Notes: a model not told the origin generated them from the sequence alone. A DNA stretch of 28,023 nucleotides from an uncultured Verrucomicrobiota bacterium (GCA_964402575.1 CAYODC010000005.1:1-28023), one strand, 5' to 3'; shown: positions 112 through 28,023, counted from the first letter of the stretch. Program-made: numbers and translations.

Positions 112-1170
112 TCAGACGTACTTTTCCATGATCGAGGCGGCTTTGATATGAGCCTCTGAATTGTTGGCGATGTACCGAGCCGTTGTCTGGAGATTCGTGT
201 GGCCCATGAGTTGGGCGATGACAGCCTGATTGGTTTCGTTGGCCCCTTGCATGGTTCCGTAGAAATGTCTCCAAGCATACGGCGGACGGACGGGAATCTT
301 TGCCCTCTTGCAGGCTCTGGCCAAACGAATACGAAGGGCGTTCCTTGTATACGGGTTGTTGCCACCGTTCAAGAAAACAAAAATGGATTTGGGATGCTTC
401 TGGGATTGGCGTCGGAAAATCTCAATGGCCATAGGCCCCAAGGTGACGGAACGAGGCGTCGGGGTCTTTGCCGATTCGGAGGTCTTGTGATGCTCAATCC
501 TTACGGTCATCGCAGACCCGTTGATCTCCACATCGGCCTTCCGCAATGTCCGCAGTTCGATGGGACGAAGCCCAGTCAGGATGGAGAACCGAATCAGGTC
601 TGCGAAATCCGGCTTTGCCGCCTTGAGCAACAGGGGTATCTCATCGGCCGTGAATTTCTTGGTCATCGGTGGCTTTTGGCTGGCAACAGGAAACTTCCTG
701 ACCGGGCAATCGCAAACCCCAAACTCTTCACCCCAGCGGAACATGGTCTTGATTTCCCGAAGGGCATGAAAACCGGCATTCACTCCCCGTCCATGGTGCT
801 TGCGAGAATGGGTGTAGTAGGCGTCTAGGTCGATGAAGGTGATTTCCATAACCATTTTGTTGCCGATATAGTCCAAGAAGTGGCAGATGAAACGCTGGCG
901 CGACAGGAACGTCTCTTCCGCCCTGTTCGCCTTGACCCAGGCCAAATGCTTAACGGCCAACTCCTTGACGTGGACATCCTTCTTCCCATCAACGGCCACC
1001 ATTGTGGACTCAACGCCCCCAATCTGAAGTTTGTCACTCTTCAGGTTTTCTTCCAGTTCCCGCAGTTTCTCCCCAGCCTTCCGCTTGTTCGGGCCAAGAT
1101 TGAACCTCTTGCCCTGAATGAAGGAATAGTAGTTCCCATTCGGATGCCAAGTTGGAGACCGTTTTCTCAT
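112..1170 (-). CDS. int: Tyrosine recombinase / integrase (352 aa)
   Basis: Catalytic set GLRPIEL (R), HHKT (K), YAWRH (HxxR box with Tyr for the first His), LMGH, TARY (Y). Short N-terminal arm-like region plus a core-binding region. ATGA overlap with the upstream HTH gene. Confidence 0.95.
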   Translation of the reverse strand: MRKRSPTWHPNGNYYSFIQGKRFNLGPNKRKAGEKLRELEENLKSDKLQIGGVESTMVAVDGKKDVHVKELAVKHLAWVKANRAEETFLSRQRFICHFLDYIGNKMVMEITFIDLDAYYTHSRKHHGRGVNAGFHALREIKTMFRWGEEFGVCDCPVRKFPVASQKPPMTKKFTADEIPLLLKAAKPDFADLIRFSILTGLRPIELRTLRKADVEINGSAMTVRIEHHKTSESAKTPTPRSVTLGPMAIEIFRRQSQKHPKSIFVFLNGGNNPYTRNALRIRLARACKRAKIPVRPPYAWRHFYGTMQGANETNQAVIAQLMGHTNLQTTARYIANNSEAHIKAASIMEKYV

Positions 1171-5188: not shown

Positions 5189-6160
5189 TCAGATTATGTT
5201 GCGATATCCTTCAACATAGGGCTTCGCTTCCGCCAATCGATCGCTGACCGCTTTGCTTATTTTTCCCCAGTTCTTCGTAATGAACTCGCGGGACAAAGAG
5301 GTGTTATTTATAAGGCTGTAGCAATCTTCAGTTCCCTTGTCCCGCCTGCCAGAAACCCAGGGCTTTCTTAAATCATATACCTGAAGGTGCTGATCCAGCT
5401 TGCTGATTCTAAGCCTTGTAATCTCATGCGCGTCCGGCTCTGTACTGCTCTTCTCATCAGTCGATTCGGCATCGGACGGGACTGTCTTTTGCTTTTTAGT
5501 CTTTAGCTCTTGCCCTGAGCCCAACAACATATCATCACGATGCCGTAATACTTCGTCGTCCATTGACATCAAGCCGATATACGAATCGAAGGCGGTCTTA
5601 GGAGCCGAATAGTCCATAATCATCGGCGCATCCATCTTCTCAAGCATCAAGTCATCCACCACGATCTCTTTGTTGTCGCCGACAATTCCCAAGGGCATAA
5701 CCGGGAACATTACGGGATGGCCAATCTTCAGAACAGCCAAGGCATAGGCCTCAAACTTCAACAGGGACTTGAATGCCTCCTGACACTTGATGAAATTGTC
5801 GTGGGACTCCGCAAAATACTTGCGAGGGAAAAACGGCTCCGCCTCTCCCCATGTCCAGATCAACGGAACTATTCCGAATTCTTCAAGATAGTTTCCCAAG
5901 GCTTGACGCCTAGCCCCCTTGGTTCTGCGCTCACTCTTCTCTACATGGGCGATTATTTCATCAGTTAAGAAACTGCCTGACTGGACGAACGACTTAAACC
6001 GCACTTCGGGCATACCCAGTTTCTTGGCAATTGCCGGGCCAGAGTCATAGACCCTCTTGTTACGGCGGGCGAATTCGTGACGGTAATACAGGGCGCGGAA
6101 CACCTGCTCGAAGTATTTGACTGCACTTGCCTTCTCGACTTTTGTGGGCTGTCTGCTCAT
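5189..6160 (-). CDS. Hypothetical protein (323 aa), remote resemblance to DUF6499/DUF2285 (FseA-like) activators
   Basis: Long ORF with its own terminator. N-terminal HEFARRN and C-terminal LQVYDLR...RLAEAKPYVEGYRNII. The gene is well supported; the product call is weak. Confidence 0.7.
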   Translation of the reverse strand: MSRQPTKVEKASAVKYFEQVFRALYYRHEFARRNKRVYDSGPAIAKKLGMPEVRFKSFVQSGSFLTDEIIAHVEKSERRTKGARRQALGNYLEEFGIVPLIWTWGEAEPFFPRKYFAESHDNFIKCQEAFKSLLKFEAYALAVLKIGHPVMFPVMPLGIVGDNKEIVVDDLMLEKMDAPMIMDYSAPKTAFDSYIGLMSMDDEVLRHRDDMLLGSGQELKTKKQKTVPSDAESTDEKSSTEPDAHEITRLRISKLDQHLQVYDLRKPWVSGRRDKGTEDCYSLINNTSLSREFITKNWGKISKAVSDRLAEAKPYVEGYRNII

Positions 6161-6786: not shown

Positions 6787-9576
6787 TCATTCGTCCCTTT
6801 CAAACAGAAAACTGAATGCTTCACTCCTCCCGTCTTCGGGCTCCTCCACTGTCCAATTGGTTTCGCTTTCGTGGGATGTCGTGGAGATTGGTGGGGTCGC
6901 TTGCCTTGCAGGCCATGCCCCGATCTCCCCATCCCCGGCAGGCGACAGTTCCATTTTCCTCTTAACCGGCTCCTGCGACATCGCGCCAGAGAACAGCAAG
7001 GGGTTCGACGCATACTTTTCCGAAGGCCTTCCCTTTACGAATTTCTCCTCCAGCCTAGCGATGTAGCCCAAGTCTTCCAGTCTCGTCAGGGCAGGGCGAA
7101 TGTCGTCCATAGACTTGACCTCCATGCAACCCCTCGTCCAAAGCAGGACTTCCCTGGCAGTAAACGTCTTGGCGTCCTTTTCAACGATATGCCTGACAAC
7201 CCTGGCCAGCAGTCCTTCCCTTGACTCGGTCTTGATTCCCAGCATGGCTTGCTCATTCTTAACGGCGAACCAATTCATCAGCCTGACGGCCCTGGTCATC
7301 ATGTCCTGGTGGATCGGGGTTCGTTCGTCGAGACCTGCCATGAGGTGCAACAGGCCAGCAATCCTGACCGTCCGTCCGGCAAACTTGTTCCACCAGGCTT
7401 GCATCTCTCCCATCTTGGGTGCGTGGAAATCTGCCCAAGTGTAATGCTTGCCTAGGATTTCCAAAGCCTCCTTGGAAAGCGATAGGATTCTAAATGGAAT
7501 TCCGCCTTCTTCATTTGGTTCGTCCAGTTGGTCGGCTTTCGCCAGAGGCTCCATTACAGCCTCATAAGCCAAACGCTTCCCGATATCTATAGCATCCTCC
7601 CTCCAGCCCGTAGGCATCCTTTCAACCTTGATAAGCAGGCATCGAGGAATCAATCCCTGGTCCTGCAACTCCTCACCATGGGACTCCAGGGCAGACCAGA
7701 GACGCCTAGGCTGGATGTATGTCAAAACAGGTATCGCTGGGTACTTCACCCGGCCAGAACCTTCACCGGCACGCACCCTGGAATCCGAACTCAAATCGTA
7801 TCCCTTGAGGATGAATTCGTTGGCTGTTTTCCCTTCCGAGTGAAACCCCGTCACCGCATTGACAAACTGCCCACCCTCGTCGGTTACAATTGCCACTTTG
7901 GCGATGCCCGCCTTGTTGGCCGTCCGGCCAGCCATCACTTCAACGGCCTGCGTCGTTAGATTTGAGACCATGTAGTATGGGTCTGGCGGTGGAGTGCCGA
8001 GTTCCTTGTCCAGTTCAACCAATCGCGTCTTGGCTTCATCGGTTGATATGCTCTTGTCGGCCTGAACTGCGGAAATCCTCTTCTCAATTACCCGTTTCAG
8101 GCATTTGTATTCCCGAAGTTTATCGTCATGGTCTTTGATGCGCCTCTCCAAGTCGTTTTCGATGGGGGTCATGATGGCTTTGAATTCAGGCGTCTTCTTC
8201 TCTCCCGAACCCGCAACTTTTATCAGCCACAAGGCCAAGGGCTCCATCCAACCGGGTTTGACTTCAACCTTCCACTTGTCACTGGCGAGCACCGAGGCGA
8301 CTGTTATCATCGAAGCGGTCACCGAACCTGTTTCGTAACCGAATTCCTTTGCGATGTCGTCGGCATACTCGACCAGTTCTGGTGGCAGGCATTCTCTGGG
8401 GAATACCGGCTCCTCAATTCTCTCCTCCAGGGCTGGAGGATGTTCCTCGGGGAAGAGGACGGAGTATTTCGACCATCCAACTTCTTCGGCCATATGGAAC
8501 AGCGTTCCCAAAGTGACTTTGTCGTCCCTGGAGCCACCGAATGACTTCCATTTGTCGTCCAGTATCCCTGGTTCATACCTTTCAGAGTCTCTGGCAGACC
8601 AACTATGCCAAATATCCAAGCCTTTCTCCGCGTCCCATGATCTCATGGCCATGCCAATCTTGAGCCATCCATCATAATCCAGCTTGGAAGGGTCTATGGC
8701 TTCCAAGGCCGAGAGAATCCTCCTCTGGTCTGGTGGGGCGGACTTGCTGAAAGAAGGTGTAGAGTCACGCTTCATGGATTCTTTTGTGGAATAGGATATG
8801 CCACCAACAAGCATAATCCTGTCTCGGGGTACGGCTTCGATGGTTTCTGGAACATGGAGGATTTGGGAACCCCGATGGGGACGTTCTGGCGTGTTTTCGC
8901 CCTTCCGACTGACGACGCCAGGGATCTTGGCGATTCTGGATGCGTTGTGAACAGACTGATCTACATCCACTGGGTTTCCCCTTGTCTTCAGCCCGAACTT
9001 CGACCCCAAGACCCTGAGAACTTCCCTAGGAAGGTCATCCTTGGGCTCAAGGTCGCACCGGTAGTAGAGGTGATACCCATTGCCAGAATCCACCACGATG
9101 GGGTCTGGCCAGCCTTGGCTGGAGAGCCATGATTTGGCCGCCATGCAGACCGCCCAAGCTTTGGCCTTTTCTTCAGAAGTCGCCGAGGTGTCGGTGAGTC
9201 TTGTCGGGTCGAAGTCAATGTAGATCCAGTTGCGACTGGCTATGTCCTCGTCTTTGGCTGCGACTTTAGCCCAACGGAAACTGTCAGGAGCACGGTCGTG
9301 AAGCCCGCTATGAACGGGATTGACTGTTACATAGGCATGCCCGCCTTCATGATCATCCCAGAACTTATTCAAGACATCTGACGCCGTCTTGGCATCCCCG
9401 AAGAATCCAGACGAGTTGCCGGGCACCATGCATCCATTCGCCAGCGAATCGAGGATTCGGATCTCGAACGTGCTTCCTTCGGCATGTAGGATTTTCAGAA
9501 ACCTCTCTGCCTCTTCCTTGTTCCATTTAGGTTCGGCATCCATGGGGACGCCTTCATTCATTTTGTCTTCCTGCAT
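6787..9576 (-). CDS. Replication protein: AEP-type primase/polymerase + PriCT-2 + DUF3987 (YfjI-like) helicase region (929 aa)
   Basis: WIYIDFD and VVDSGNGYHLYY (AEP motifs); LDYDGWLKIGMAM...WHSWS...KWKSF (PriCT-2); FPRECLP, VAGSGEKKTP, VTDEGG, QP, GLIPRCL, KFAGRTVRIAGLLHL, LEDLGYI (DUF3987-type). AAGGA SD upstream. Confidence 0.9.
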   Translation of the reverse strand: MQEDKMNEGVPMDAEPKWNKEEAERFLKILHAEGSTFEIRILDSLANGCMVPGNSSGFFGDAKTASDVLNKFWDDHEGGHAYVTVNPVHSGLHDRAPDSFRWAKVAAKDEDIASRNWIYIDFDPTRLTDTSATSEEKAKAWAVCMAAKSWLSSQGWPDPIVVDSGNGYHLYYRCDLEPKDDLPREVLRVLGSKFGLKTRGNPVDVDQSVHNASRIAKIPGVVSRKGENTPERPHRGSQILHVPETIEAVPRDRIMLVGGISYSTKESMKRDSTPSFSKSAPPDQRRILSALEAIDPSKLDYDGWLKIGMAMRSWDAEKGLDIWHSWSARDSERYEPGILDDKWKSFGGSRDDKVTLGTLFHMAEEVGWSKYSVLFPEEHPPALEERIEEPVFPRECLPPELVEYADDIAKEFGYETGSVTASMITVASVLASDKWKVEVKPGWMEPLALWLIKVAGSGEKKTPEFKAIMTPIENDLERRIKDHDDKLREYKCLKRVIEKRISAVQADKSISTDEAKTRLVELDKELGTPPPDPYYMVSNLTTQAVEVMAGRTANKAGIAKVAIVTDEGGQFVNAVTGFHSEGKTANEFILKGYDLSSDSRVRAGEGSGRVKYPAIPVLTYIQPRRLWSALESHGEELQDQGLIPRCLLIKVERMPTGWREDAIDIGKRLAYEAVMEPLAKADQLDEPNEEGGIPFRILSLSKEALEILGKHYTWADFHAPKMGEMQAWWNKFAGRTVRIAGLLHLMAGLDERTPIHQDMMTRAVRLMNWFAVKNEQAMLGIKTESREGLLARVVRHIVEKDAKTFTAREVLLWTRGCMEVKSMDDIRPALTRLEDLGYIARLEEKFVKGRPSEKYASNPLLFSGAMSQEPVKRKMELSPAGDGEIGAWPARQATPPISTTSHESETNWTVEEPEDGRSEAFSFLFERDE

Positions 9577-9905: not shown

Positions 9906-10087
9906 GCCGATTCTTCTTTGTTTACATATGCTTCTCGGATCGGTCGCCGGTTTCCTCTATTTATTTATGCTTTTCTTAAAATATTTTCAGGGCGAGGTTC
10001 ACAAGGAGCAAGGGAAATGGCCCCAGTCTGACCGCAACAATATTATACAGGGAACCGCGACCGGGAATTCCCACTGGATGCCATCAC

Positions 10088-10241
10088 ATTTTTGCGATTA
10101 TTGCGACGGCCTCTCTATAGGGGTCTGTGTTGGAAAATAGAGAGAGAGAAATATATCTAAATATGCCTTTAGGGAGGCCTACACGAAAATCGCAAAAATC
10201 CCCCCAGGCCTTCCCAACGACATTTATGTGATTATTGCGAC
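10088..10241. repeat. Repeat cluster in a long non-coding region (candidate origin or recombination site)
   Basis: 12-bp IR ATTTTTGCGATT (10088-10099) / AATCGCAAAAAT (10188-10199); inner 8-bp IR CTCTCTAT (10111-10118) / ATAGAGAG (10137-10144); 12-bp direct repeat GATTATTGCGAC (10096-10107, 10230-10241). Confidence 0.7.
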
Positions 10242-10808
10242 TACCGTTTAGGGCGTTTTCTCTTCAAAAGTCCCAAATGAAGGGGTTGTGGTCTCACAAT
10301 GGGTCAGGGGGTGGGATCAGGCCTGAAGCCCACCCCAATTCCTGTGCAGTGACAAAATACCTGCCTAAAGAGAACTGTAGGCCAGCCGAAATTGTGAAAT
10401 GGGGTTGGAGGGCTAGTCGCCCCAAGGAATCCTCCCCCCCGGCCATTTTCTCGATTTTTTGTAAGAAACATCATCTCTCTATGAATCCGAAAATGGCTCC
10501 CTCGAAAAGTCCTGGGCAGCCTTGTGGCTTAGGTGACCAATATCTAGGCCATTTTCCCGCAAGACACCCCCGCCCCTCTTCCTGGGGGAAATCACAGACA
10601 TTTGCTTTTCAGCCTGGATCGGCCAAGACGCCCTTCCGCCTGAAGACTTCTAGCCCAATAGCGACCCAACCTGGAAAATTCTGTCCGATAATTGGGTCAG
10701 TATCACCTAAATGGCGGAACAAGTTGGACCCGTCCTGCGAGGAACTAGGTCAGTTTCTCTTCTTGTTGACCCAGTTAGGAGGCCTTTTGAAGGACGAGTG
10801 CAGGAAGA

Positions 10809-11471
10809 TCAGGCGACCGAGATGGCGGAAGCGACGCTTTTCCGTCTCGGGCTTTGCAGGGAACCGAGGAGCTTCTCCATGGCATTCATGCCGGCGATGG
10901 ACTGCTCGGGAGAAATATCAGCATACACTTGAGTAACCGTCAGGCTGGAGTGGCCAAGTTGTTTCTGAACCAACCTCAAAGAATTGGTCGCCTCGTAGAG
11001 CACCGTGGCGTTGGTATGCCTGGCGTCATGTAGCCGGTGATTGGGAACGTACTTCTTCCACCTTTTATACACGCCACTTGGCGCATACTTTGGACTGCGC
11101 TCGCTCCGAAGGAAGAAGTCTTCTGGCGATTGAATCTCGCCCCGTTCGACCTTCCACTTCATATACCAGCGAACATCGGAAGCGAAGCCTTTAGGCAAAT
11201 GGACATGGCGAGTCTTTCCGCCCTTACCCCTGCGGACCAAAAGACGGCTGTTTCCCCCGAAGATCGAAAAGTCCCCGCACCGGAGTTCGCAGACCTCGAA
11301 ACGCCGAAGGCCTGTATAGATGAAGGTCTGGATAATCATCCAATCTCTGATGAGCTGGGGCCTTTTCTTGGCAATTCCAAGCGTTTTGATTTCCTCGGCA
11401 CGCAAGAGCAGCGCGGTCAGTTCCTGCCGGTTGAGGAATTTTTCGGGCGTGATCTCCCAGTTCGGGTTCAT
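10809..11471 (-). CDS. Catalytic-domain-only tyrosine recombinase (220 aa)
   Basis: TGLRRFEV (R), RGKGGK (K), HRLHDARH (HxxR), LGHSS, TQVY (Y). Begins directly at the catalytic domain (PEKFLNRQEL). ATGA overlap with the ruvB-like stop. Confidence 0.95.
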   Translation of the reverse strand: MNPNWEITPEKFLNRQELTALLLRAEEIKTLGIAKKRPQLIRDWMIIQTFIYTGLRRFEVCELRCGDFSIFGGNSRLLVRRGKGGKTRHVHLPKGFASDVRWYMKWKVERGEIQSPEDFFLRSERSPKYAPSGVYKRWKKYVPNHRLHDARHTNATVLYEATNSLRLVQKQLGHSSLTVTQVYADISPEQSIAGMNAMEKLLGSLQSPRRKSVASAISVA

Positions 11472-12442
11472 GCTGATACCTCCTGTAGAGTGGCAAACAT
11501 CTCTCTGGCCTTTTCCGTCGCCACCCGTCCCCTGGACGACCGGCGGAGAAGTCCTTCCCGGATGAGATGGGGCTCCATGGCCTGTTCAATGGTCTCGATG
11601 GTTTCATTCAACGCTGCCGAGACCGACGTGAGCCCCACCGGCTGGTCGGCTTGGATGAGCATCCCCAGATACCGCCGATCCTGCCCCGTCAGCCCAGAGG
11701 CGTCCACGTCCCGCATAGCATACGCTTCCTGAACGGCGTTGAGATCAGGGGCGACTCCCAGGCCCGACGAATACTCAACCAGCCAGCGCAGATGGCCGAT
11801 TGCTATGCGAGCAGTGGAACGAGACCGCTTGGCTACTTCCATGGCGACGCCTAGTTCCAATTCGACGCCCATGGCCTTGGAGGCCCGGAGGACAATGCGA
11901 GTCAGGTCGTCGAGGCTGTATGGCTCAAGGGTCAGCTCATGAGCAAAACGGCTACGCAATGGCGCAGATACCAGGCCAGACATCGTAGAGGCTCCCAATA
12001 AAGTGAAAGGCGGAATGGCGACCATCTCGGTGGCTGGCTTTGCCTGGACGCCCAGGGCCCGCATGAAGTCGGAGGACTCTGTCTTGACCACCGGAACCAA
12101 ATTGTCCTCCATCGCCGGATACAGGATTTCTTCCACCGATCTGGCCATCGCGTGAATCTCATCGATGAAGAGGACATCCAGGGGCTTCAGGGAGCGAAGG
12201 AGTCCAATGAGTTGCTCTGGAGCCTGGAGATTTCCGCCGATGGTCTCCACCAGCTTACCTCCAATTTCGTTGGCGACAATTCTGGCCAGCGTCGTTTTCC
12301 CCAATCCAGGGGGTCCAGAAAGAAGGACATGGCTGACAGAGGTCTTCTTGGTCTTGGCAGATCGGCAGAGGATCTGGAGGACTTGCCTGACACGCTCTTG
12401 GCCAATGAAGTCATTGAGGCTGGATGGGCGGATGCATTGCAT
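11468..12442 (-). CDS. ruvB: RuvB-like Holliday-junction branch-migration AAA+ ATPase (324 aa)
   Basis: RPSSLNDFIGQ, GPPGLGKTT (Walker A), LFIDEIH (Walker B), EEILYPAMED, PPFTLLGA, PLRSRF (Arg finger), STARIA (sensor II), C-terminal wHTH PVGL...EPHLIREGLLRRSSRGRVAT. Confidence 0.93.
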   Translation of the reverse strand: MQCIRPSSLNDFIGQERVRQVLQILCRSAKTKKTSVSHVLLSGPPGLGKTTLARIVANEIGGKLVETIGGNLQAPEQLIGLLRSLKPLDVLFIDEIHAMARSVEEILYPAMEDNLVPVVKTESSDFMRALGVQAKPATEMVAIPPFTLLGASTMSGLVSAPLRSRFAHELTLEPYSLDDLTRIVLRASKAMGVELELGVAMEVAKRSRSTARIAIGHLRWLVEYSSGLGVAPDLNAVQEAYAMRDVDASGLTGQDRRYLGMLIQADQPVGLTSVSAALNETIETIEQAMEPHLIREGLLRRSSRGRVATEKAREMFATLQEVSA

Positions 12443-12587
12443 ATCTTTACCTATTGATCTTTAGTGCAACAGATCCCAGTGAAAACGGGTCGCTGGCCCC
12501 TGGGACGAATCAAGGCCTGTTTTCCCGAGAAGTGACATAATTTTTTCCATAAAAAACCTGCGTGGGCGGTGTCCCGTAGAATTACAT

Positions 12588-12812
12588 CTATGTGCCAACG
12601 CCACATCCCAGGCCCCGCCTTTGCCCGCCGATTGGTGCAGATAACCCGTCCAAACGCTTCCGCCTGATGGCATTGGTTGGCTTTATCATCGCCAATCCCG
12701 TTCGATTCTGGGCGATGGCGGTCACATTCGGCTCGGAAACCGCCGATAAATATATGAAGCCAGCATTCTGCCTCAGGGGATCTGCCTCAAATCTGGAGCC
12801 CTTCCGCATCAT
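12588..12812 (-). CDS. Small basic hypothetical protein (74 aa)
   Basis: AGGAGG SD 6 nt before ATG, 10 bp after the stop of the 112-aa gene. No family recognised. Confidence 0.55.
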   Translation of the reverse strand: MMRKGSRFEADPLRQNAGFIYLSAVSEPNVTAIAQNRTGLAMIKPTNAIRRKRLDGLSAPIGGQRRGLGCGVGT

Positions 12813-12822
12813 AAATGTCCTC

Positions 12823-13161
12823 CTATCCCTGCCCGAGCCTGGCCATTGCCCGATCCATTGCTTCGCCCAATTGTCGCCTGAAAGTATTTGGATAGTCCCC
12901 CAGGAACTCCCCCTGCATAATAATCACAAGGCTGACGGTTGCCATCCGAGTAGCGGAATCCAGCAACTGACGTTGAAAGACGTACGCGACGAATATTCGT
13001 ATGAGGTAGTTCCTCCCCGCCATGAGCCTTGCAAGAGTCCGCCACGCCATATGTCGTTGTTGCTGGTCGTCCGAGACTCCCGCGACTGCCTCTGCAAGTT
13101 CGCAGGTCCACTGGCGGAAGGCTTGGGTCTGCAAATTGTCGTCTAGGGGAATAGGGTTCAT
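12823..13161 (-). CDS. Small helical hypothetical protein (112 aa)
   Basis: AGGAGG SD upstream; starts 21 bp after the ClpX-like stop. Amphipathic helical composition. Confidence 0.75.
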   Translation of the reverse strand: MNPIPLDDNLQTQAFRQWTCELAEAVAGVSDDQQQRHMAWRTLARLMAGRNYLIRIFVAYVFQRQLLDSATRMATVSLVIIMQGEFLGDYPNTFRRQLGEAMDRAMARLGQG

Positions 13162-13182
13162 AGGCTGGAGCCTCCTGCCTCA

Positions 13183-14850
13183 TTATGCCAGCCCTTCCGC
13201 CCCTTCGGTCTCGTTGATGGCCTTCCTTATGTCTGCCAGTCTGACAACGATGTCCCCAGGCTTGTCGTCGTAGAGATGTCCTTCGACCAGGGTTCCTAGG
13301 ATAGTTTTCACCGCTCTGGAATATCCACGAATTTCGCAAGCCCAGTTGGCAAGGTACTGAATGGCTTCATCCGTCAAGTCGAGACTCATGCCGAAGGACT
13401 GAAGAAAGGCGTTTTGGCGGGCAAGCAGGCCTGTCCTTGGGTGAGAAGTGATGCGGACGATCTGCTCGGGAGTCGGATCTGGGAGGACAATGATCGCCCC
13501 GATCCGATTGACGATCTGCTCCATGAAGCCATATTTCACAAGGGCGTCTCGGATATCACTCCTTGCAGCCTTTGCTCCGGCCGACCCAAAGCCAAGCCCC
13601 GAAGACTTGCGGTTGCCATCAGCCAGCAGATCCCGAAGCCCCTGAAAGGCTCCGCAAAGCAGAAAATTTGTTTCCCAGCAGTCCAGCACGCCCATATATG
13701 GTGTATTTGATCGCCTTGAACCCAACGGCAGCTTGCATCCCTCCAGAGGCTTCAGCAATTCGGCCTGGATTCCTCGGCCCTGAGGGTCTGTCGATGAATG
13801 GCCTCCGTCACCCTTGGCGCAGAGCTTGTCAAATTCGTCCATGACCAGGATGCCCTTCTGGGCTTCTGACGGCTTGGTCTTGTTGGCCAGCAGGCCGAAG
13901 AAACACTCGTCAATGCTCAACCCGACATAGGAAGCCTGAGAAACCCCTGACATATCGGCTACCGAATATGGGAGTCCGCTGACTCTGGCGAATGATTCTG
14001 CCATATGTGTTTTTCCGCTTCCGCTGGAGCCGATTAAAAGGGTCACAACTGGAGAAACACTTGGCCTGACTCCCTTACGAATCTGCTCCAGACGACGCAT
14101 ATGGAGACTCATTTGGGCGGAAAAACGACGCAAGGGGACATCTATGCCGATGACCTCGTTTTTCAAGGTATCGAAAATTCCCATGGCCGTCAGCAGCTTG
14201 GGGGTCTCGCCGGGCTTCTGGACGGAAGGGGGAGGTTCTGCATTGCGTGATACTGTTGCAGACTTATGAGATTCGGAAATATTCTTCCGCACCCATTCAT
14301 CCCTGTCCCTCTGAAGGCTCTCTGCATCCCAAATCACAGGAAGGTTGTCGTTGCTCAGAAACTTGGACAATTTCCATGCAGGCAACAACTCGCCTCCTGC
14401 GTAATCGGTTTCCTTGTAGCAGATGGCATCCTTTCTACCAACGAGCATTCGGATCGTCCTGCGACTTTCAAGATGAAGGCTCATATCTCCTAGCGAGGCC
14501 GCCGTTGCAGCTCTTGCAACCGATATTCCCGAACGCTCTGTGGTCAAAGAACCCCAGCCAATGTAGGAGATGATTCTCAAGGCAATATGGTCGCCGAGAA
14601 CCTGGTCGCCCCTGATCTCTAATAGCGATCGCAACAGCCGTTGGTTGGTGTCATAGGCGGCAGTCTCTATTCGCTTCTCAATAGCCTCGATTTCAGAACG
14701 AAGCCTAGAAGCCTCATGAGGCCGAATAGGTCTCGTCAGCCCAAGTTCGCTCTGGGGGAACGCATACTGATGCAGGAGTTGGCCAAGCCGAAGGACATCG
14801 GCAGTGGCCTGCTCTCTGGTGGGCATTGATTCTTTGGACTCTTCAGCCAT
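13183..14850 (-). CDS. ClpX-like AAA+ ATPase with an unrecognised ~215-aa N-terminal region (555 aa)
   Basis: EVIG, LLIGSSGSGKT (Walker A), SYVG pore loop (cf. GYVG), ILVMDEFDK (Walker B), GIQAELLK (cf. GVQQALLK), FLLCGAF (cf. FICGGAF), GLGFG loop, LVKYGFMEQIVNRI. No C4 zinc-binding domain. Confidence 0.88.
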   Translation of the reverse strand: MAEESKESMPTREQATADVLRLGQLLHQYAFPQSELGLTRPIRPHEASRLRSEIEAIEKRIETAAYDTNQRLLRSLLEIRGDQVLGDHIALRIISYIGWGSLTTERSGISVARAATAASLGDMSLHLESRRTIRMLVGRKDAICYKETDYAGGELLPAWKLSKFLSNDNLPVIWDAESLQRDRDEWVRKNISESHKSATVSRNAEPPPSVQKPGETPKLLTAMGIFDTLKNEVIGIDVPLRRFSAQMSLHMRRLEQIRKGVRPSVSPVVTLLIGSSGSGKTHMAESFARVSGLPYSVADMSGVSQASYVGLSIDECFFGLLANKTKPSEAQKGILVMDEFDKLCAKGDGGHSSTDPQGRGIQAELLKPLEGCKLPLGSRRSNTPYMGVLDCWETNFLLCGAFQGLRDLLADGNRKSSGLGFGSAGAKAARSDIRDALVKYGFMEQIVNRIGAIIVLPDPTPEQIVRITSHPRTGLLARQNAFLQSFGMSLDLTDEAIQYLANWACEIRGYSRAVKTILGTLVEGHLYDDKPGDIVVRLADIRKAINETEGAEGLA

Positions 14851-14951
14851 GCCTAAACCGCCTAACTAATCCACCATGCCAACAGCATCGCCCTCATAAG
14901 GATATGGACGGCCATGCCATATAGAATCTTTTCGACCATTGAATGCGAAGC

Positions 14952-15497
14952 CTAGTCGAACTTGATCCGCAGGTTGTCCCCTTCACGAATCAATGCGAAG
15001 CCGTCACGGCAGGAGCGGTGTTTTCGCTCCGAATCGGTCGAGGCGGACAGGATCACGGCCAGATCGTACCGCGCATGGGTCTCATCCTTGCCATTGGCCT
15101 TGCTGAAAGCGCGAATGAGATCGGGCTTCCCGATGCCCTTGGAGCCTGCCGAGGCAATCAAATCCACCAGCAAACCATACGAACTTCCCTCCCTGAAAGG
15201 ATTCTTGGGGTGACGGGCGACAGTGGACTTCCTGGGGCTCTTTGCGGTCTTTTTGACAGCCTTCTGAGCCCGTTTTTCCTTCGGCGTCGCCACCAATCGT
15301 TCGGACTTCGCCGTCCCCGCCTTGTTCCCAGCCAGGATGGCCTCGATGCCAGGTACGGTCTCCCGCAGCTTCTTGGCCGTCGAACCCGACAACTTGTTTC
15401 CACCCCCAAGCAACCGATAGACTTCGGTGAGCGACTTGGGCGATTTGGATTCCAGAATCTCGACAATCTTCTCTTTCGACACTTCCATTGTAGACAT
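14952..15497 (-). CDS. Hypothetical basic protein (181 aa from ATG 15497), possibly DNA-binding
   Basis: AAGGAGG SD before ATG 15497. Two compact regions joined by a Lys-rich linker (KEKRAQKAVKKTAKSPRKS). Confidence 0.75.
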   Translation of the reverse strand: MSTMEVSKEKIVEILESKSPKSLTEVYRLLGGGNKLSGSTAKKLRETVPGIEAILAGNKAGTAKSERLVATPKEKRAQKAVKKTAKSPRKSTVARHPKNPFREGSSYGLLVDLIASAGSKGIGKPDLIRAFSKANGKDETHARYDLAVILSASTDSERKHRSCRDGFALIREGDNLRIKFD

Positions 15498-15677
15498 GAC
15501 AACCTCCTTGATGGTTGGTTGTGTCATATCGTGGAAGTGCAGTTCTGTAAGCTGCCTATTTTCGTGATTTCGCCACATTTTTCTGTGGAGTGAAAAACAG
15601 ACCTTCAGCCAGTCCAACCCACGCCTGGGCGATCTCCCAGATCGATTTTCCTGATGTTCAATAGGCGGATACTACGC

Positions 15678-15875
15678 CTATGGCTTCACTGTTCCCATGG
15701 CATCCGCCTCGATGGCCTTCAGCAAGAATTTTGTATCTTGAAGCACGGACTTGGTTCGCCATATGACGTCGAGAAGAGCGAGGCGTTCGACGGCATTTGC
15801 TTTGTCTAGGGACGCTTTGAGGCTATCGCAAGCGAAGCCAAGGTCGTGGCTCGCCTTTGTCAGGGATTCTTTCAT
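15678..15875 (-). CDS. Small helical hypothetical protein (65 aa)
   Basis: ATGA overlap with the stop of the XRE-fusion gene (15872-15875). Confidence 0.65.
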   Translation of the reverse strand: MKESLTKASHDLGFACDSLKASLDKANAVERLALLDVIWRTKSVLQDTKFLLKAIEADAMGTVKP

Positions 15876-16342
15876 ATTTTTTCCTGTTTCGGACGCCGTT
15901 TTGTCGGAGGAGTGGATTTCTGGTCGGCAACAGAGGCTTTAGACGGCCTGGATAATGCAAGGTTCCTTCTGTCCATGAGCCTTCTGGCCTTCTGCCACCA
16001 GTGCCTGACTTCTTCCAGATTGATGCCCAGATTGTCGGCCTGGGCCTCGATTCCGCTGATGATGTCTTCCAATTGAGCGAGGATTTTCCAGGCCTCAAGG
16101 TCTTCAGGCAGAGTTTCCCTGGGTGGAGTGGCATAGAGGTTTTCGACGGAGACTTTCAAAACCTGGGAAAACCCCATGATCTCATGGTCGAAGACTTTTC
16201 TCGTCCCCAGTTCGATCCCGGCGATCTCTTCACTGGTCAGGGGAGACGATGGAGGCAGGGCTGAAGATAGTTGATGTACCGTCAACCCTTTCTGGATGCG
16301 TATACGGCGAATTTGCCAACCTAGGATGTTCTTCAATGCCAT
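15872..16342 (-). CDS. XRE-family HTH regulator with an extra C-terminal helical domain (156 aa)
   Basis: NILGWQIRRIRIQKGLTVHQLS...EIAGIELGTRKVFDHEI...VLKVSVENL is an HTH_3-type pattern, followed by EDLEAWKILAQLEDIISGIE helices. Confidence 0.85.
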   Translation of the reverse strand: MALKNILGWQIRRIRIQKGLTVHQLSSALPPSSPLTSEEIAGIELGTRKVFDHEIMGFSQVLKVSVENLYATPPRETLPEDLEAWKILAQLEDIISGIEAQADNLGINLEEVRHWWQKARRLMDRRNLALSRPSKASVADQKSTPPTKRRPKQEKI

Positions 16343-16391
16343 GCCTGCTGTCTAGGCGACTTGTGGAAGCGAAGCCAGCGGGATTTTCAGG

Positions 16392-16634
16392 CTATTTCTG
16401 CTTACCCTTGGGAAACAGGTCGGAGACTCCGACGCCTAGGGCCTGGGCTAGGAGAAGTGCTTCCCCATCAGAAACGCAACGGATGCCAGCCTCGATCTTG
16501 GCCAGCGTTCCCCTGCTGATATCCAGGCCGACTCTTTGGCATTTGGCAGAGAGTTGATCCTGCGAAAGGCCGAGTTGATTCCTCAATCGGCTGACCTGTT
16601 TTCCTGTGACGTTCGTGGGCAAGCATTGCTCCAT
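16392..16634 (-). CDS. XRE-family HTH regulator (80 aa)
   Basis: NVTGKQVSRLRNQLGLSQDQLSAKCQRVGLDISRGTLAKIEAGIRCVSDGE...ALGVGVSDLF. Confidence 0.92.
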   Translation of the reverse strand: MEQCLPTNVTGKQVSRLRNQLGLSQDQLSAKCQRVGLDISRGTLAKIEAGIRCVSDGEALLLAQALGVGVSDLFPKGKQK

Positions 16635-16746: not shown

Positions 16747-17181
16747 ATGACCCAAGGCATCCCGGCTTCTGCCATCTGGCCATCCCTGCGCCTTTTCCTG
16801 CTGACCCTGTTGGTGTCGGGACAGATTCATTCCTATGGGCAGTCCGACTCATCTTGGCAAAGAGATGCAGGAGCCGTCGCCCGTAGCCACGTCAGCGGAA
16901 TGATCAACTCCGGGGCGGGAATCAGAGCCTCTCTCGTAGGCTACCAAAGGGGATTGGGCGTCCCGCTTATCGCCATCTACAACTACGAGGGGTACACGAC
17001 CGGGGGATTCCTAAAGCGAACGATGCTATCGGTGGCCATGCAACGCGACCAGCAAGGCAACTGGCATGTCGTGGCCGCCGAGGAAGGCGGGGTTTTCGAG
17101 GGGCTACCCTTGCGAAGCGACTGGCGACAGGTCGCCCAAGACGGCGGGCGGGCCAGAGAAGTCCAGAGACGCGGTTATTGA
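16747..17181 (+). CDS. Putative secreted protein (144 aa)
   Basis: AAGGA SD before ATG 16747. Hydrophobic signal-like stretch LRLFLLTLLVSGQIHSYG. Stop 13 bp before the next gene. Confidence 0.7.
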   Translation: MTQGIPASAIWPSLRLFLLTLLVSGQIHSYGQSDSSWQRDAGAVARSHVSGMINSGAGIRASLVGYQRGLGVPLIAIYNYEGYTTGGFLKRTMLSVAMQRDQQGNWHVVAAEEGGVFEGLPLRSDWRQVAQDGGRAREVQRRGY

Positions 17182-17194
17182 GGAGTATTCGCAG

Positions 17195-19870
17195 ATGAAC
17201 TTCAAATGTCGGGTCGGCCAAGCTCATCGGATCGGATTTCAATGTCTCATGGCGGGATCGCTCATTCCCGTCTTCTTCACCGGATGTTCCGACAGCCGAA
17301 AGGAAGCCGAGGTTGCCTCATCCTCTGTCGTTGCCACAACCCCTTCGGTTGCCACGTTGTCTGCCAAGACGCTTACCGACGCCTTCGCCTTGAACGAAAA
17401 TTCAGCAAATCAGACATACAAGGGCAATGTCATCACCGTATATGGGCCAGTTCAGGAAAAGCATGACGAAGGCGACAAGGCCTTGGTGGTTTTGACGGGT
17501 GGGATTAACCAAGAGGTTTTCTGCACCGTTTCTCCTCGGCTTTCGGGAGATGCAGACGATCTTGAGGTTGGAAGAACGGCTATCATCAAGGGTAAATGCC
17601 TTGGAATCGTCCAGGGAAACCTCTCGCTAGACAAGTGCGTCATCGAGGATCGACTGAGGGAACTGAAGGCCAAGGCAAAGTCGGGGGATTCGACCGCCCA
17701 ATTCGACCTTGCCAAGGCCCTTGAGACGCCTGCCAAGGAAATTCGCGACATTCGGCGGGCGTTCCATCTCTACTGTCAAGCTGCGGAGGCAGGCCACGAA
17801 GATGCCAAATGGACGGTTACGAGGGCCTTGGCGAACGCATGGAGTCCCGAAACCAATGCCCCTGTTATCTGGCAATGGCTCAAGGAGGAGGCGGAGACCG
17901 GCAATGCGGAAGCCTGCTATCTGATGGGAATACTCTTCAACGTGAACGAAGACTTCGGCATCGATCCCAAAGCGGGAGTCCCTTGGTTCAAAAAGGCTTC
18001 GGATGGCGGTCATCAGGAAGCCACATACACCATGGCCGTGCTCAACTACGAAGGTGAACTGGTCCCAACCAACAAGGCCGAGTCAGCACGCCTCCTCTCT
18101 CTCGTCGATCCCCAGCGTCAACCGAGGGCAGCGGAGTCTCTTGGCCTAATGCGCTTGCTGGGTGATGGCATTGAGGCAGATGTTCCCAACGGTCTGTCAC
18201 TCCTTGAAACGGCGGTCGCATACGGGAGAGCCCAATCCGCTTCCACCCTTGGGCGCATCTATCTGTACGGCGTGGCGGTGCCAAAGGACCGAGAGAAAGC
18301 CCGCGAATGGTTTCTCAAGGCGGCGGAAATGGGAGATGCCTATGGGCAGGTCAAGGCCGGGCTCCTGCTGGGCGGAAAGGACTCGGCCCGCTTCGAGCGG
18401 AGCCGGAACTTGGTTTTCGCAGCCCTGAGCAACGACCAGCAAGTTGCATATACGGAAATCGTTTCCTTCATGACGGATGAAGTGACCGGCATGCTGGAGA
18501 CCGACAATCCTCCCCTGGCTCCCCAGGATTCGATGTGGTTCCGCAAGATCAATGGCACGCTGGGTGGGGGCAAGTTCATCGGCCTCAACGAAGGGGTTCT
18601 GGATTTGATGTCGGACACCAACCGCATCGCAGTCCCCCTTGCGGATCTCGACGTGGCCGGGCGAACCCGATACGACCCCGAGTTCCGTAGCCTTCTGGCC
18701 CGCTCCATCATCACGGAAAACGTATATGCCATGACGGCGGAATTCAAGCAGCCCAAACCCAAGCCCTCGACAAACGACTGGACGGAGGCTTTGAGAACAT
18801 TGGCAGACGATGGGGAACCAGACGCCATGGCATGGCTGGGAAACAGCCTGCTGGAAGACCCGAAGACCAGGGAGGAAGGCATTGGCTGGCTGAAGAAGTC
18901 TGCCGAGGCGGGATCTGCCTATGGGCAGAACGCCATGGGGATGGTCTGCCTAAGCGGCATCGGCCAATCCGTGGACAAGGAAACGGCATTCCGCATGTTC
19001 AAGCTGGCGTCGGAACAAGGCTATTCAGAATCGACTTTCACCGTCGGACGGATGCTCATGGCAGGGGCGGGTTGCGAAAAGGACTCGAATGGCGGGCTTG
19101 GCCTCATCAGGCAGGCGGCAAACGAAGGAGAGATTCCTGCAATCTTGTTTTTGGGACGCTACTTCTATGGAGACCGGCGGGGCTCTCGCGATGCCGCTCA
19201 AGCCTTTGCATGGTTCCGTTGGGGAGCCGTCATGGGAAGCCCGGAAGCCCAATACTGGCTGGGACGGATGTATTACGAGGGAAGAGGACTGCCCAAGGAC
19301 TACAACCGGGCGATCCAATGGCTGTCTTCATCTTCCGGTCAAGACTATCAACCCGCTAGCCATTACCTTGAAAGCGATTCCGCCAACCGTCAGGAAATGG
19401 CCAGGGCCAAGGCCGCCTACCAGCAAGAACTGGAGAGACACGCGGACCAAGTGGAGCGAATCCGACAAAACCCCAAGTACGATCTGGTCAATTACCTTTC
19501 AGGTGCCCCGCGAAGATTTTCCAAATCAAGCACGGAAAGGGAGGCTTATAGCCAGTTCCATAAGAACCTCTCGCAAGGATACTCTTTACGCGCGGCCGCC
19601 TCCAAGGCATGGGAAGATGTCGGCGTCGCGCCTCGCGCTTCGCCTCGCGCATCGTCGCAGTCTAGTTCTGGTTCGATCTTTGGAGGCGCGACCGATCCGA
19701 GAGATCGGCTGGCGATAGCAAAGGCAACGCAGAACATGCTTGGAAATCGGTTTTCAACGATAGGCAGTCCATTTGACGGCTGGTCTTCCCTTCCTACCTA
19801 TTGGTCCGATGAGCAAACTTGGCGCGACAGACAGCTAGAGGCCATCCAGGGAAGCACGATGGGATTCTAG
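17195..19870 (+). CDS. Lipoprotein with tRNA_anti-like OB fold, Sel1-like repeats and an SHD1-like domain (891 aa)
   Basis: GAGGAG SD; lipobox-like FTGC; SAKTLTDAF...YKGNVITVYG...GRTAIIKGKC (tRNA_anti-like); many Sel1 repeats (AQFDLA, ACYLMG, AREWFLKAAEMG, AQYWLGRMYYEGRG, AIQWL); WFRKING...KFIGLNEGVL...IAVPLADLD (SHD1-like). Confidence 0.9.
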   Translation: MNFKCRVGQAHRIGFQCLMAGSLIPVFFTGCSDSRKEAEVASSSVVATTPSVATLSAKTLTDAFALNENSANQTYKGNVITVYGPVQEKHDEGDKALVVLTGGINQEVFCTVSPRLSGDADDLEVGRTAIIKGKCLGIVQGNLSLDKCVIEDRLRELKAKAKSGDSTAQFDLAKALETPAKEIRDIRRAFHLYCQAAEAGHEDAKWTVTRALANAWSPETNAPVIWQWLKEEAETGNAEACYLMGILFNVNEDFGIDPKAGVPWFKKASDGGHQEATYTMAVLNYEGELVPTNKAESARLLSLVDPQRQPRAAESLGLMRLLGDGIEADVPNGLSLLETAVAYGRAQSASTLGRIYLYGVAVPKDREKAREWFLKAAEMGDAYGQVKAGLLLGGKDSARFERSRNLVFAALSNDQQVAYTEIVSFMTDEVTGMLETDNPPLAPQDSMWFRKINGTLGGGKFIGLNEGVLDLMSDTNRIAVPLADLDVAGRTRYDPEFRSLLARSIITENVYAMTAEFKQPKPKPSTNDWTEALRTLADDGEPDAMAWLGNSLLEDPKTREEGIGWLKKSAEAGSAYGQNAMGMVCLSGIGQSVDKETAFRMFKLASEQGYSESTFTVGRMLMAGAGCEKDSNGGLGLIRQAANEGEIPAILFLGRYFYGDRRGSRDAAQAFAWFRWGAVMGSPEAQYWLGRMYYEGRGLPKDYNRAIQWLSSSSGQDYQPASHYLESDSANRQEMARAKAAYQQELERHADQVERIRQNPKYDLVNYLSGAPRRFSKSSTEREAYSQFHKNLSQGYSLRAAASKAWEDVGVAPRASPRASSQSSSGSIFGGATDPRDRLAIAKATQNMLGNRFSTIGSPFDGWSSLPTYWSDEQTWRDRQLEAIQGSTMGF

Positions 19871-27566: not shown

Positions 27567-28023
27567 GGGCTGAGAGAAGGCGTTTGCGTACTAATGGTGC
27601 GGATATAACCACGATTTCCGAACATCACCAATAGTTCCATACTAATGTGACAAAATAGTGCCATCGACGGCACAAACAGGGCCATTATGGCACATATTTT
27701 ATCAGCGAAAGAAATTGAAGGCTCTCCTTATTCTCCTGAGCTTCAATGCATTAAATAATTTTAGCGCGTTGGCATGGGACCTGCAAACCATATGGCTATG
27801 AAGCTTGATTGTGAAATACAACGAGGTCTGGACGAAGAATCCAGCAAAGCAAGAGGCGGAATGGCATCCAACGGTCCTGAAAAAGGATCGATTCGTGCTT
27901 ATACAGCCATATGTATTTCGCTTACCCATACTCGGATTGTTAGTTAGAAACAGAAGGGGGGTGAAAATAATGTAAGCGTCCGGCCGAGCACCGCCTATTC
28001 TGAGACGGCGAAGTGATGCAGAG

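Follow-up and report, generated by a model that had tools for sequence, protein, structure and literature searches.

We analyzed a run of genes at positions 10809-16634 of a 28,023-nucleotide (nt) stretch of DNA from an uncultured Verrucomicrobiota bacterium (GCA_964402575.1 CAYODC010000005.1:1-28023; hereafter the window), which is the entire contig C5 of a metagenome-assembled genome (MAG) that is 64% complete and divided into 495 contigs. The run encodes two XRE-type regulators, a 65-amino-acid (aa) protein, a winged-helix (WH) protein, a ClpX-like AAA+ unfoldase, a RuvB paralog, and a short tyrosine recombinase, and it recurs in relatives of this wastewater bacterium as two linked modules of a mobile island. 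With moderate confidence, we interpret the RuvB paralog, the recombinase, and an adjacent palindromic site as a motor-assisted, resolution-type recombination module that is joined to a regulator/unfoldase module but can be separated from it. We are equally inclined to view the gene run as a whole as the conserved backbone operon, consisting of two separable modules, of integrative and self-replicating islands of Planctomycetota-Verrucomicrobiota-Chlamydiota (PVC) bacteria.

Close relatives of the window were Verrucomicrobiota MAGs, and DNA near-identical to the window was present in metagenomes of bioreactors, wastewater, and rivers that derive from 12 studies. Protein families were assigned with Pfam, NCBIfam, and PHROG, and defense systems were searched with PADLOC 2.0. 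Because a reverse census based on an alignment of the ClpX-like protein gave a single close genome locus, gene contexts were sampled via four metagenome look-ups. Loci, genomes, and contigs are designated below by L, G, and C numbers, respectively.

A RuvB paralog linked to a short tyrosine recombinase and a palindromic site

The last gene of the run (10809-11471, minus strand) encodes a 220-aa tyrosine recombinase that consists of the catalytic domain only (Pfam Phage_integrase, 1.3e-22). Residues R56, K83/K86, H148, R151, H174, and Y183 were invariant across 27 homologues. The protein lacks a core-binding domain, with PDB matches that begin at residue 117-175 of XerA, XerH, and XerD and are confined to the catalytic domains of these proteins, and its NCBIfam Xer score of 83 bits fell far under the cut-offs of 220-335.

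An alignment-based scan using one genome per species yielded 80 recombinase loci, among which linkage to RuvB was strict. A RuvB gene was directly upstream on the same strand in all 13 loci with a recombinase of at least 45% identity (10 from Verrucomicrobiota, 2 from Lentisphaerota, and 1 from Kiritimatiellota) and in the flanks of none of the 67 more distant loci. Metagenome contexts agreed with this linkage. Most of the paired genes overlap by 4 nt or are located no more than 17 nt apart. The pair showed 83-95% aa identity versus 72-78% DNA identity, and protein identity so far above DNA identity indicates strong purifying selection on RuvB and the recombinase rather than recent copying.

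The partner gene (11468-12442, minus strand) encodes a 324-aa RuvB paralog that passed the NCBIfam RuvB equivalog cut-off of NF000868 (313.7 versus 282 bits) and was just short of that of TIGR00635 (286 versus 299 bits). The protein contains RuvB_N, AAA_lid_4, and RuvB_C (the C-terminal winged helix), and alignment to solved RuvB revealed that the ATPase motifs GPPGLGKT, DEIH, PLRSRF (the arginine finger), and ARIA (sensor 2) are kept. In contrast, the RuvA-binding beta-hairpin has an altered sequence and a 12- to 15-aa insertion in 16 of 16 recombinase-linked copies and in 0 of 9 canonical PVC RuvBs. A maximum-likelihood tree split 16 recombinase-linked from 12 canonical PVC RuvBs by a branch with support of 99/94. 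Same-genus genomes all hold a different RuvB that is 39-44% identical to that of the window, and the island type (83-85% identity) was found in 2 of 18. Four further genomes, including a complete Kiritimatiellota chromosome, each encode both forms, with scores of 484-499 bits for the canonical RuvB and 310-322 bits for the linked paralog. The two forms coexist in G001, G011, and G032-G035. On the basis of the tree, the classes of score, and the patchy occurrence, we rejected the possibility that the gene is the native ruvB of the host with an element inserted beside it.

As the earlier note on this DNA had pointed out, both AAA+ motors occur without their normal partners: the contig carries no clpP, ruvA, or ruvC, the host clpP-clpX operon is located on contig C90 apart from the island, and canonical RuvB is a separate gene in relatives. 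Both motors are extra paralogs. Unlike the RuvB of the RuvAB(C) system, with which it shares the ATPase motifs, the lid, and the C-terminal winged helix, the island motor falls in a separate clade with a lengthened hairpin, has no ruvA or ruvC nearby, and has a tyrosine recombinase as its obligate neighbor. A complex prediction for the RuvB paralog and the recombinase scored 0.27 relative to a mark of 0.32. As a separate observation, the G011 island contains two extra, very divergent RuvB-like AAA+ genes (L016:1880-2815 and L016:16117-16707, both minus strand; 27-30% identity), and these and a gene on contig C134 of G026 formed a separate, long-branched group in the tree.

The third component of the module is a candidate cis site just past the recombinase gene. 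Site I, a candidate recombination core, is a 34-bp palindrome (10743-10776) with 10-bp arms and a 14-bp center, and lies 33 nt past the recombinase stop codon; across loci, palindromes were found approximately 25-45 nt past the stop codon. Site II (10661-10701), a candidate accessory binding site, consists of the related half-sites GACCCAA and TTGGGTC inverted around 22 nt. Second related inverted repeats were also located 50-80 nt further on in L019, L021, and L024. The site block was kept in five close loci despite differing flanks, and the site of L017 carries a compensatory change in both arms. Deeper lineages have palindromes of their own at the same offset, with an arm sequence that changes with the recombinase lineage. 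A strict palindrome test was passed by 9 of 20 loci versus 4% of random segments from the same loci. The site was single copy in the window and in G000, G001, G011, and G034, and a search of four genomes detected no second full or hybrid site. An invertible segment for phase variation was ruled out, as neither the window nor the genome has a second site.

The recombinase had its best matches among proteins of Xer systems (XerCD/dif-FtsK, XerS/difSL, XerH/difH, and XerA/dif), namely XerA (4a8e), XerH (5jjv), and XerD (1a0p). As for XerS and XerH, an approximately 30-bp dyad site adjoins the recombinase gene, and a hexameric motor is tied genetically to the island recombinase as FtsK is tied functionally to XerD. 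However, the island recombinase lacks a core-binding domain, its motor is an AAA+ RuvB paralog and not the RecA-fold FtsK, and the module is island borne, patchy (2 of 18 same-genus genomes), and not part of chromosomal housekeeping.

Gene order and replacement of the recombinase

The entire run from 10809 to 16634 consists of seven solid genes, all on the minus strand, and two or three doubtful small open reading frames (ORFs). The nine co-oriented genes counted in the earlier note are thereby reduced, with co-orientation upheld for the seven solid genes and a "small-small" pair before RuvB now doubtful. The two ATGA couplings that it had reported are real overlaps, as the ORF coordinates give them at 15875-15872, between the genes for a 156-aa HTH-like protein (p156) and the 65-aa protein (p65), and at 11471-11468, between those for RuvB and the recombinase. 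Its reading of no obvious terminator also held in a consensus scan, which found no convincing minus-strand terminator between genes. The scan returned two weak minus-strand candidates only, inside the RuvB and recombinase ORFs; with candidates in these locations alone, a single transcript may be possible for the gene run.

The order of genes for XRE, HTH, (p65), WH, ClpX-like, RuvB, and recombinase proteins was kept in L006-8, L009, L017, L122, L124, and L125. This recurrence of the order is far beyond chance. The ClpX-like, RuvB-like, and short recombinase genes co-occur in the same order in at least seven independent loci, contrary to the absence of co-occurrence elsewhere that the earlier note had named as grounds for refutation. 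Deep branches that contain all three genes have ClpX-like proteins of 25-52% identity and RuvB and recombinase proteins of 44-50% identity, and more distant ClpX-like genes were found upstream of the RuvB-recombinase pair in L020, L021, L025, and L027. The ClpX-like gene was always preceded by the gene for the WH protein. This ClpX-like block precedes the RuvB-recombinase pair in approximately 60% of assessable loci. The other approximately 40%, including L012, L016, L018, L022, L026, L028, and the P0139 contigs, have no ClpX-like gene, and the upstream neighbors in these loci were Sel1 proteins, a Ser/Thr kinase, or the WH protein alone. In deeper loci, we also observed a family of approximately 65-aa proteins without a Pfam match just upstream of the RuvB paralog (L020:8791-8985, L021:3528-3725, L025:8229-8459, L026:8742-8933, and L028:4079-4282); this family was undetectable in the window.

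The best functional clue came from loci in which the recombination module has been exchanged. L001/L123 and contig C19 of G011 keep the backbone from XRE to ClpX-like, with a small serine resolvase (Resolvase and HTH domains) replacing RuvB and the recombinase. The resolvase genes are located at L001:11452-12072 and, in G011:C19 (L126, reverse strand), at approximately 5348-5944 of the reversed locus. L001/L123 also keeps the primase gene of the island and shows 82-86% identity in the ClpX-like and primase genes at both the DNA and protein levels. Both resolvases matched PF00239 at 1e-43, and because they are only 41% identical to each other, the resolvase-bearing state is old. This non-orthologous replacement suggests that the slot calls for a resolvase-type site-specific recombinase.

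These contexts bear on whether the two modules work together. According to the earlier note, all nine genes form one regulated machine, in which proteolysis or remodeling would gate motor-assisted recombination. The ClpX-like protein (with ClpP) might exert such control by removal of a repressor or remodeling of the recombinase complex. ClpX is known to remodel the MuA transpososome. In every context that we observed, the ClpX-like gene is followed by a module for site-specific recombination, whether the RuvB-recombinase pair (the window, L006, L009, L017, L122, L124, L125, and the four more distant loci) or the serine resolvase, and this pairing spans the deep divergence of the ClpX-like proteins. 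The genes are also co-oriented, with no clear terminator. However, the RuvB-recombinase pair also occurs in the loci listed above that have no ClpX-like gene, and the 740-nt spacer between the two modules holds unconserved ORFs only. Moreover, two unrelated types of recombinase next to the same block fit a shared position in an island backbone equally well. A single machine is thus partly contradicted, both by the approximately 40% of loci without a ClpX-like gene and by the occurrence of the ClpX-like block with a serine resolvase, and we consider it unlikely. With a link between the modules that is frequent but not obligatory, it stays a minority possibility. The excision switch that was proposed as an output of this machine is also unlikely, since the island has its own full-length integrase, which in L016 is next to tRNA-Pro.

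The resolvase replacement and the form of the palindrome also bear on a possible role in mobilization. The recombinase could be an atypical relaxase of the MpsA type of Salmonella genomic island 1 (SGI1) or of the TcpM type, with the palindrome as an origin of transfer (oriT) and the RuvB paralog unwinding or pumping DNA for helper-driven transfer. MpsA of SGI1, a tyrosine recombinase-like protein with catalytic residues, provides a precedent (PMC6414798), and L122 contains a gene for a NikA-like relaxosome accessory protein just downstream of the recombinase gene. The MpsA/MpsB/oriT system (PMC6414798) resembles the island module in that a tyrosine recombinase-like enzyme and a separately encoded partner act on repeat-rich cis DNA close by, all within an integrative island that also encodes an integrase; the partner in our island is a RuvB motor, not a core-binding-like protein. 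Family scans recognized no MpsB-like or core-binding-like partner, relaxase, type IV secretion system, or coupling protein, and Pfam recognized no core-binding-like partner of the MpsB type among the small ORFs. The dyad has a 13+8+13-like geometry typical of recombinase core sites, and the presence of a serine resolvase in its stead is more in keeping with recombination than with nicking. A mobilization function thus appears quite unlikely.

The unfoldase, the regulators, and the surrounding island

The ClpX-like gene (13183-14850, minus strand) encodes a 555-aa AAA+ unfoldase that scored 141.6 bits against the NCBIfam ClpX cut-off of 359. Overall, the island protein scored 126-142 bits, and the host clpX on contig C90 scored 615 bits. 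In alignment to solved ClpX, the island protein retains Walker A/B, a pore-1 loop of the YVG type (SYVG), and the stretch GLGFG, which contains the LGF ClpP-docking loop and aligns with the IGF loop of solved ClpX. G420 and F421 of GLGFG were invariant in 21 members of the ClpX-like family, and a GIGFG stretch was seen in the distant L027 copy. The protein otherwise differs from ClpX in that the zinc-binding domain is replaced by an N-terminal, helical domain of approximately 215 aa with only one Cys and no recognizable family, and its gene is not beside clpP. The predicted fold of this domain was poor (predicted local distance difference test [pLDDT] score of 62), with look-alikes in the Atlas under a useful score. 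We found nothing relevant in the literature on prophage ClpX-like proteins.

The most constant partner of the ClpX-like gene encodes the basic WH DNA-binding protein (14952-15617, minus strand), which was identified by translation, alignment, and an AlphaFold model and is also directly upstream of RuvB in L023 and L024. Its true start is probably M41 at 15497 (181 aa), as suggested by a shift of frame upstream of M41 in relatives. The AlphaFold model (pLDDT score of 75) contains an N-terminal four-helix domain, a basic disordered linker, and a C-terminal winged helix. An NPFR.G..Y motif was invariant in family alignment A5, and fold searches gave only weak, generic winged-helix matches (such as ScpB and ArsR; E > 0.01).

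The first gene of the run (16392-16634, minus strand) encodes an 80-aa XRE-family helix-turn-helix (HTH) regulator (Pfam HTH_3, 1e-11), and homologues with 44-83% identity are encoded at the start of the same order in L001, L006, L009, L017, L124, and L125. The second HTH-like protein, p156 (15872-16342, minus strand), has an N terminus that reads as an XRE-type HTH followed by a C-terminal extension. Its sole family match was weak (PADLOC HTH_VI; E of 0.008), it is conserved at 35-81% identity in related loci, and the stop codon of its gene overlaps the p65 start codon. The conserved p65 protein (15678-15875, minus strand) had no match in family searches, and its copies in L001, L009, L122, and G011:C19 are 65-78% identical. 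Three small ORFs between the ClpX-like and RuvB genes (12461-13161, minus strand) are doubtful as genes: 12823-13161 (112 aa), 12588-12812 (74 aa), and 12461-12673 (70 aa). None had a family match, and their conservation was limited to short patches in L001, L017, and L125.

The window also contains genes expected of an integrative and replicating element. Downstream of the cassette are 0.9 kb of repeat-rich, noncoding DNA, a primase-helicase gene, Dcm and Dam methylase genes, a 115-aa ORF, and an adjoining integrase gene. The primase-helicase (6787-9576, minus strand; Pfam PriCT_2 and DUF3987) is located 1.2 kb from the cassette, and L001 holds an 86% identical copy. The full-length, 352-aa tyrosine integrase (112-1170, minus strand; Pfam and PHROG integrase matches) is encoded at the end of the contig and island, and its 61% identical homologue in L016 (G011) is 230 nt from tRNA-Pro. 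The island thus has an ordinary integrase, and the short recombinase is an internal gene. Two repeats were seen in the noncoding DNA within 10086-10241, one direct (22 nt; 10086 and 10220) and the other inverted (34 nt; 10088-10121/10166-10199); these are shared with L001, which assigns them to the primase module, and they are possibly an origin. Upstream and divergent from the cassette are genes for a Sel1/TPR protein and then large secreted-type proteins, and among 19 same-genus genomes, these and the cassette were found only in G001 and G011. In a comparison of same-genus genomes, the 20 kb around the G001 copy were accessory throughout, so that the limits of the island are not definable in this way.

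Sel1/TPR proteins (window 17066-19870, plus strand; L006, L012, L017, and L124) recur beside the cassette in otherwise different loci. Some of them contain either an OB domain resembling tRNA_anti or a zinc ribbon, and in L012, two such proteins replace the ClpX-like block directly upstream of RuvB. At the right end of the window, the last approximately 55 bases (27970-28023) recur with 97-100% identity, terminally or internally, in at least five further contigs of this MAG and are a dispersed repeat that probably broke the assembly. At the left end, the contigs of other samples no longer match the window to the left of approximately position 55, just beyond the integrase gene, and positions 1-55 are thus a possible island or attachment (att) boundary.

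The island is mosaic. In wastewater run X2, depth over the primase segment was approximately one-seventh of that elsewhere in the island, and a full-depth variant contig joins 6647 to 10566, indicating a population variant with the primase missing or replaced. This join occurs just past the conserved site block, and the genes past the site differ in every locus (a primase island, a Tle1-like lipase, a cyclic oligonucleotide-based antiphage signaling system [CBASS], DUF499/Vsr/Dcm, a Cfr10I-type restriction-modification [RM] system, and ParD/HicB). Such variable genes just beyond the site would be explained by a secondary integration platform, at which the recombinase and its neighboring site would take up or swap DNA circles in the manner of integron attI or of a second integrase. 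We regard this role as improbable, considering the lack of a second full or hybrid site in the four genomes searched and that islands are mosaic everywhere, so that variability beside the site is not specific.

Defense-related cargo is often located beside the module, including a CBASS operon (L125:9796-13163), a Dcm and Cfr10I/Bse634I restriction system (L024:5135-7504), and a DUF499/Vsr/methylase region (L014:15300-20658). The earlier note had left room for an anti-phage role, in which the two AAA+ motors and the recombinase would themselves form a defense system. The cassette is accessory, island borne, and often beside such cargo (CBASS in L125, RM in L024, and AbiEii in L012). However, PADLOC 2.0 gave no specific match: the recombinase had none, and the AAA+ proteins had only generic P-loop matches such as IetA and TRIP13 (E of 1e-4 to 1e-6 over 25-85 residues). 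The cassette also lacks an effector domain (nuclease, toxin, or NADase), and the recombination module comes with a dedicated cis site and can be exchanged for a resolvase. An anti-phage role is thus unsupported and very improbable. We regard the cassette in its entirety as the backbone of an integrative island whose type is ordinary, although not yet described.

A proposed mechanism and its significance

In the mechanism that we favor, Module A (16634-13183) comprises the two XRE-type regulators, p65, the WH protein, and the ClpX-like unfoldase, which probably would deliver one or more island or host proteins to host ClpP or remodel them. Module B (12442-10661) would be a self-contained unit of site-specific recombination. 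Its recombinase, which is catalytically complete but lacks a core-binding domain, would act on the approximately 34-bp palindrome just downstream of its own gene, and the dedicated, translationally coupled RuvB paralog would supply a hexameric DNA motor. This motor, with its altered hairpin, would load on the recombinase-bound junction in place of RuvA or, alternatively, would activate or direct the recombinase, as FtsK does XerD. The module would most likely serve to resolve multimers or cointegrates formed by the island in its excised, replicating state, considering the single-copy site, the island's own integrase, and the serine resolvase found in the same slot.

The module shares features with known systems for multimer or cointegrate resolution of plasmids, phages, and transposons (Cre/loxP, Tn4430 TnpI/IRS, ResD/rfsF, and serine resolvase/res). 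As in these systems, a self-replicating element carries one cis site by the recombinase gene, and the site combines an inverted core with further related half-sites. Sister elements, moreover, have a small serine resolvase in exchange for the module. The tyrosine recombinases of the Cre, TnpI, and ResD systems have a DNA-binding N-terminal domain, and to our knowledge, none of the four systems encodes its own AAA+ motor.

Several observations weigh against resolution by a motor-assisted recombinase. Beyond the nine loci that passed the strict test, the remaining loci of the 20 have degenerate or displaced palindromes. The palindromes also fold as RNA (z = -2.8), so that they could be structural elements of the 3' RNA and not sites for a protein; an Rfam search of the window gave no match. 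In addition, no replication gene or integrase was seen within 10 kb of the RuvB-recombinase loci L006-8, which consequently fit a resolution role less well. The slot swap demonstrates interchangeability and not identity of function, and small serine recombinases can also be invertases. Finally, the role of the motor is one that we purely infer.

A more specific version of this mechanism, which we offer tentatively and believe less likely than the general one, is that the tyrosine recombinase, devoid of a core-binding domain, has taken the place of RuvA as the partner of the RuvB paralog. The recombinase tetramer would hold the junction and the motor would drive or license strand exchange at a cognate palindrome, under proteolytic control in many islands by the ClpP-docking ClpX paralog of the same operon. 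The three parts would then form an old and mobile recombination device of PVC bacteria, with the first dedicated pair of an AAA+ motor and a tyrosine recombinase. Tyrosine recombinases are thought to handle the Holliday junction intermediate alone, with the FtsK-XerD link to a motor being a housekeeping special case. Searches of the open literature gave no report of a tyrosine recombinase that has a RuvB paralog as its partner, and the trio of RuvB, recombinase, and site is apparently undescribed.

Our analysis provides a first description of the backbone of an island family that is common in wastewater Verrucomicrobiota. Within Module A, the ClpX paralog, in which the ClpP-docking loop is intact and the N-terminal domain is new, is a candidate for a means by which an island redirects the host protease. 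If our interpretation of Module B is correct, the conserved pair of a RuvB-derived motor and a recombinase that has lost its DNA-clamping domain, carried by selfish elements, would represent a second life for RuvB outside RuvABC. Such a pair would reveal a new route by which site-specific recombination acquires directionality or specificity, and the compact trio of two genes and an approximately 35-bp site, with sites specific to each lineage, could yield orthogonal recombination tools.

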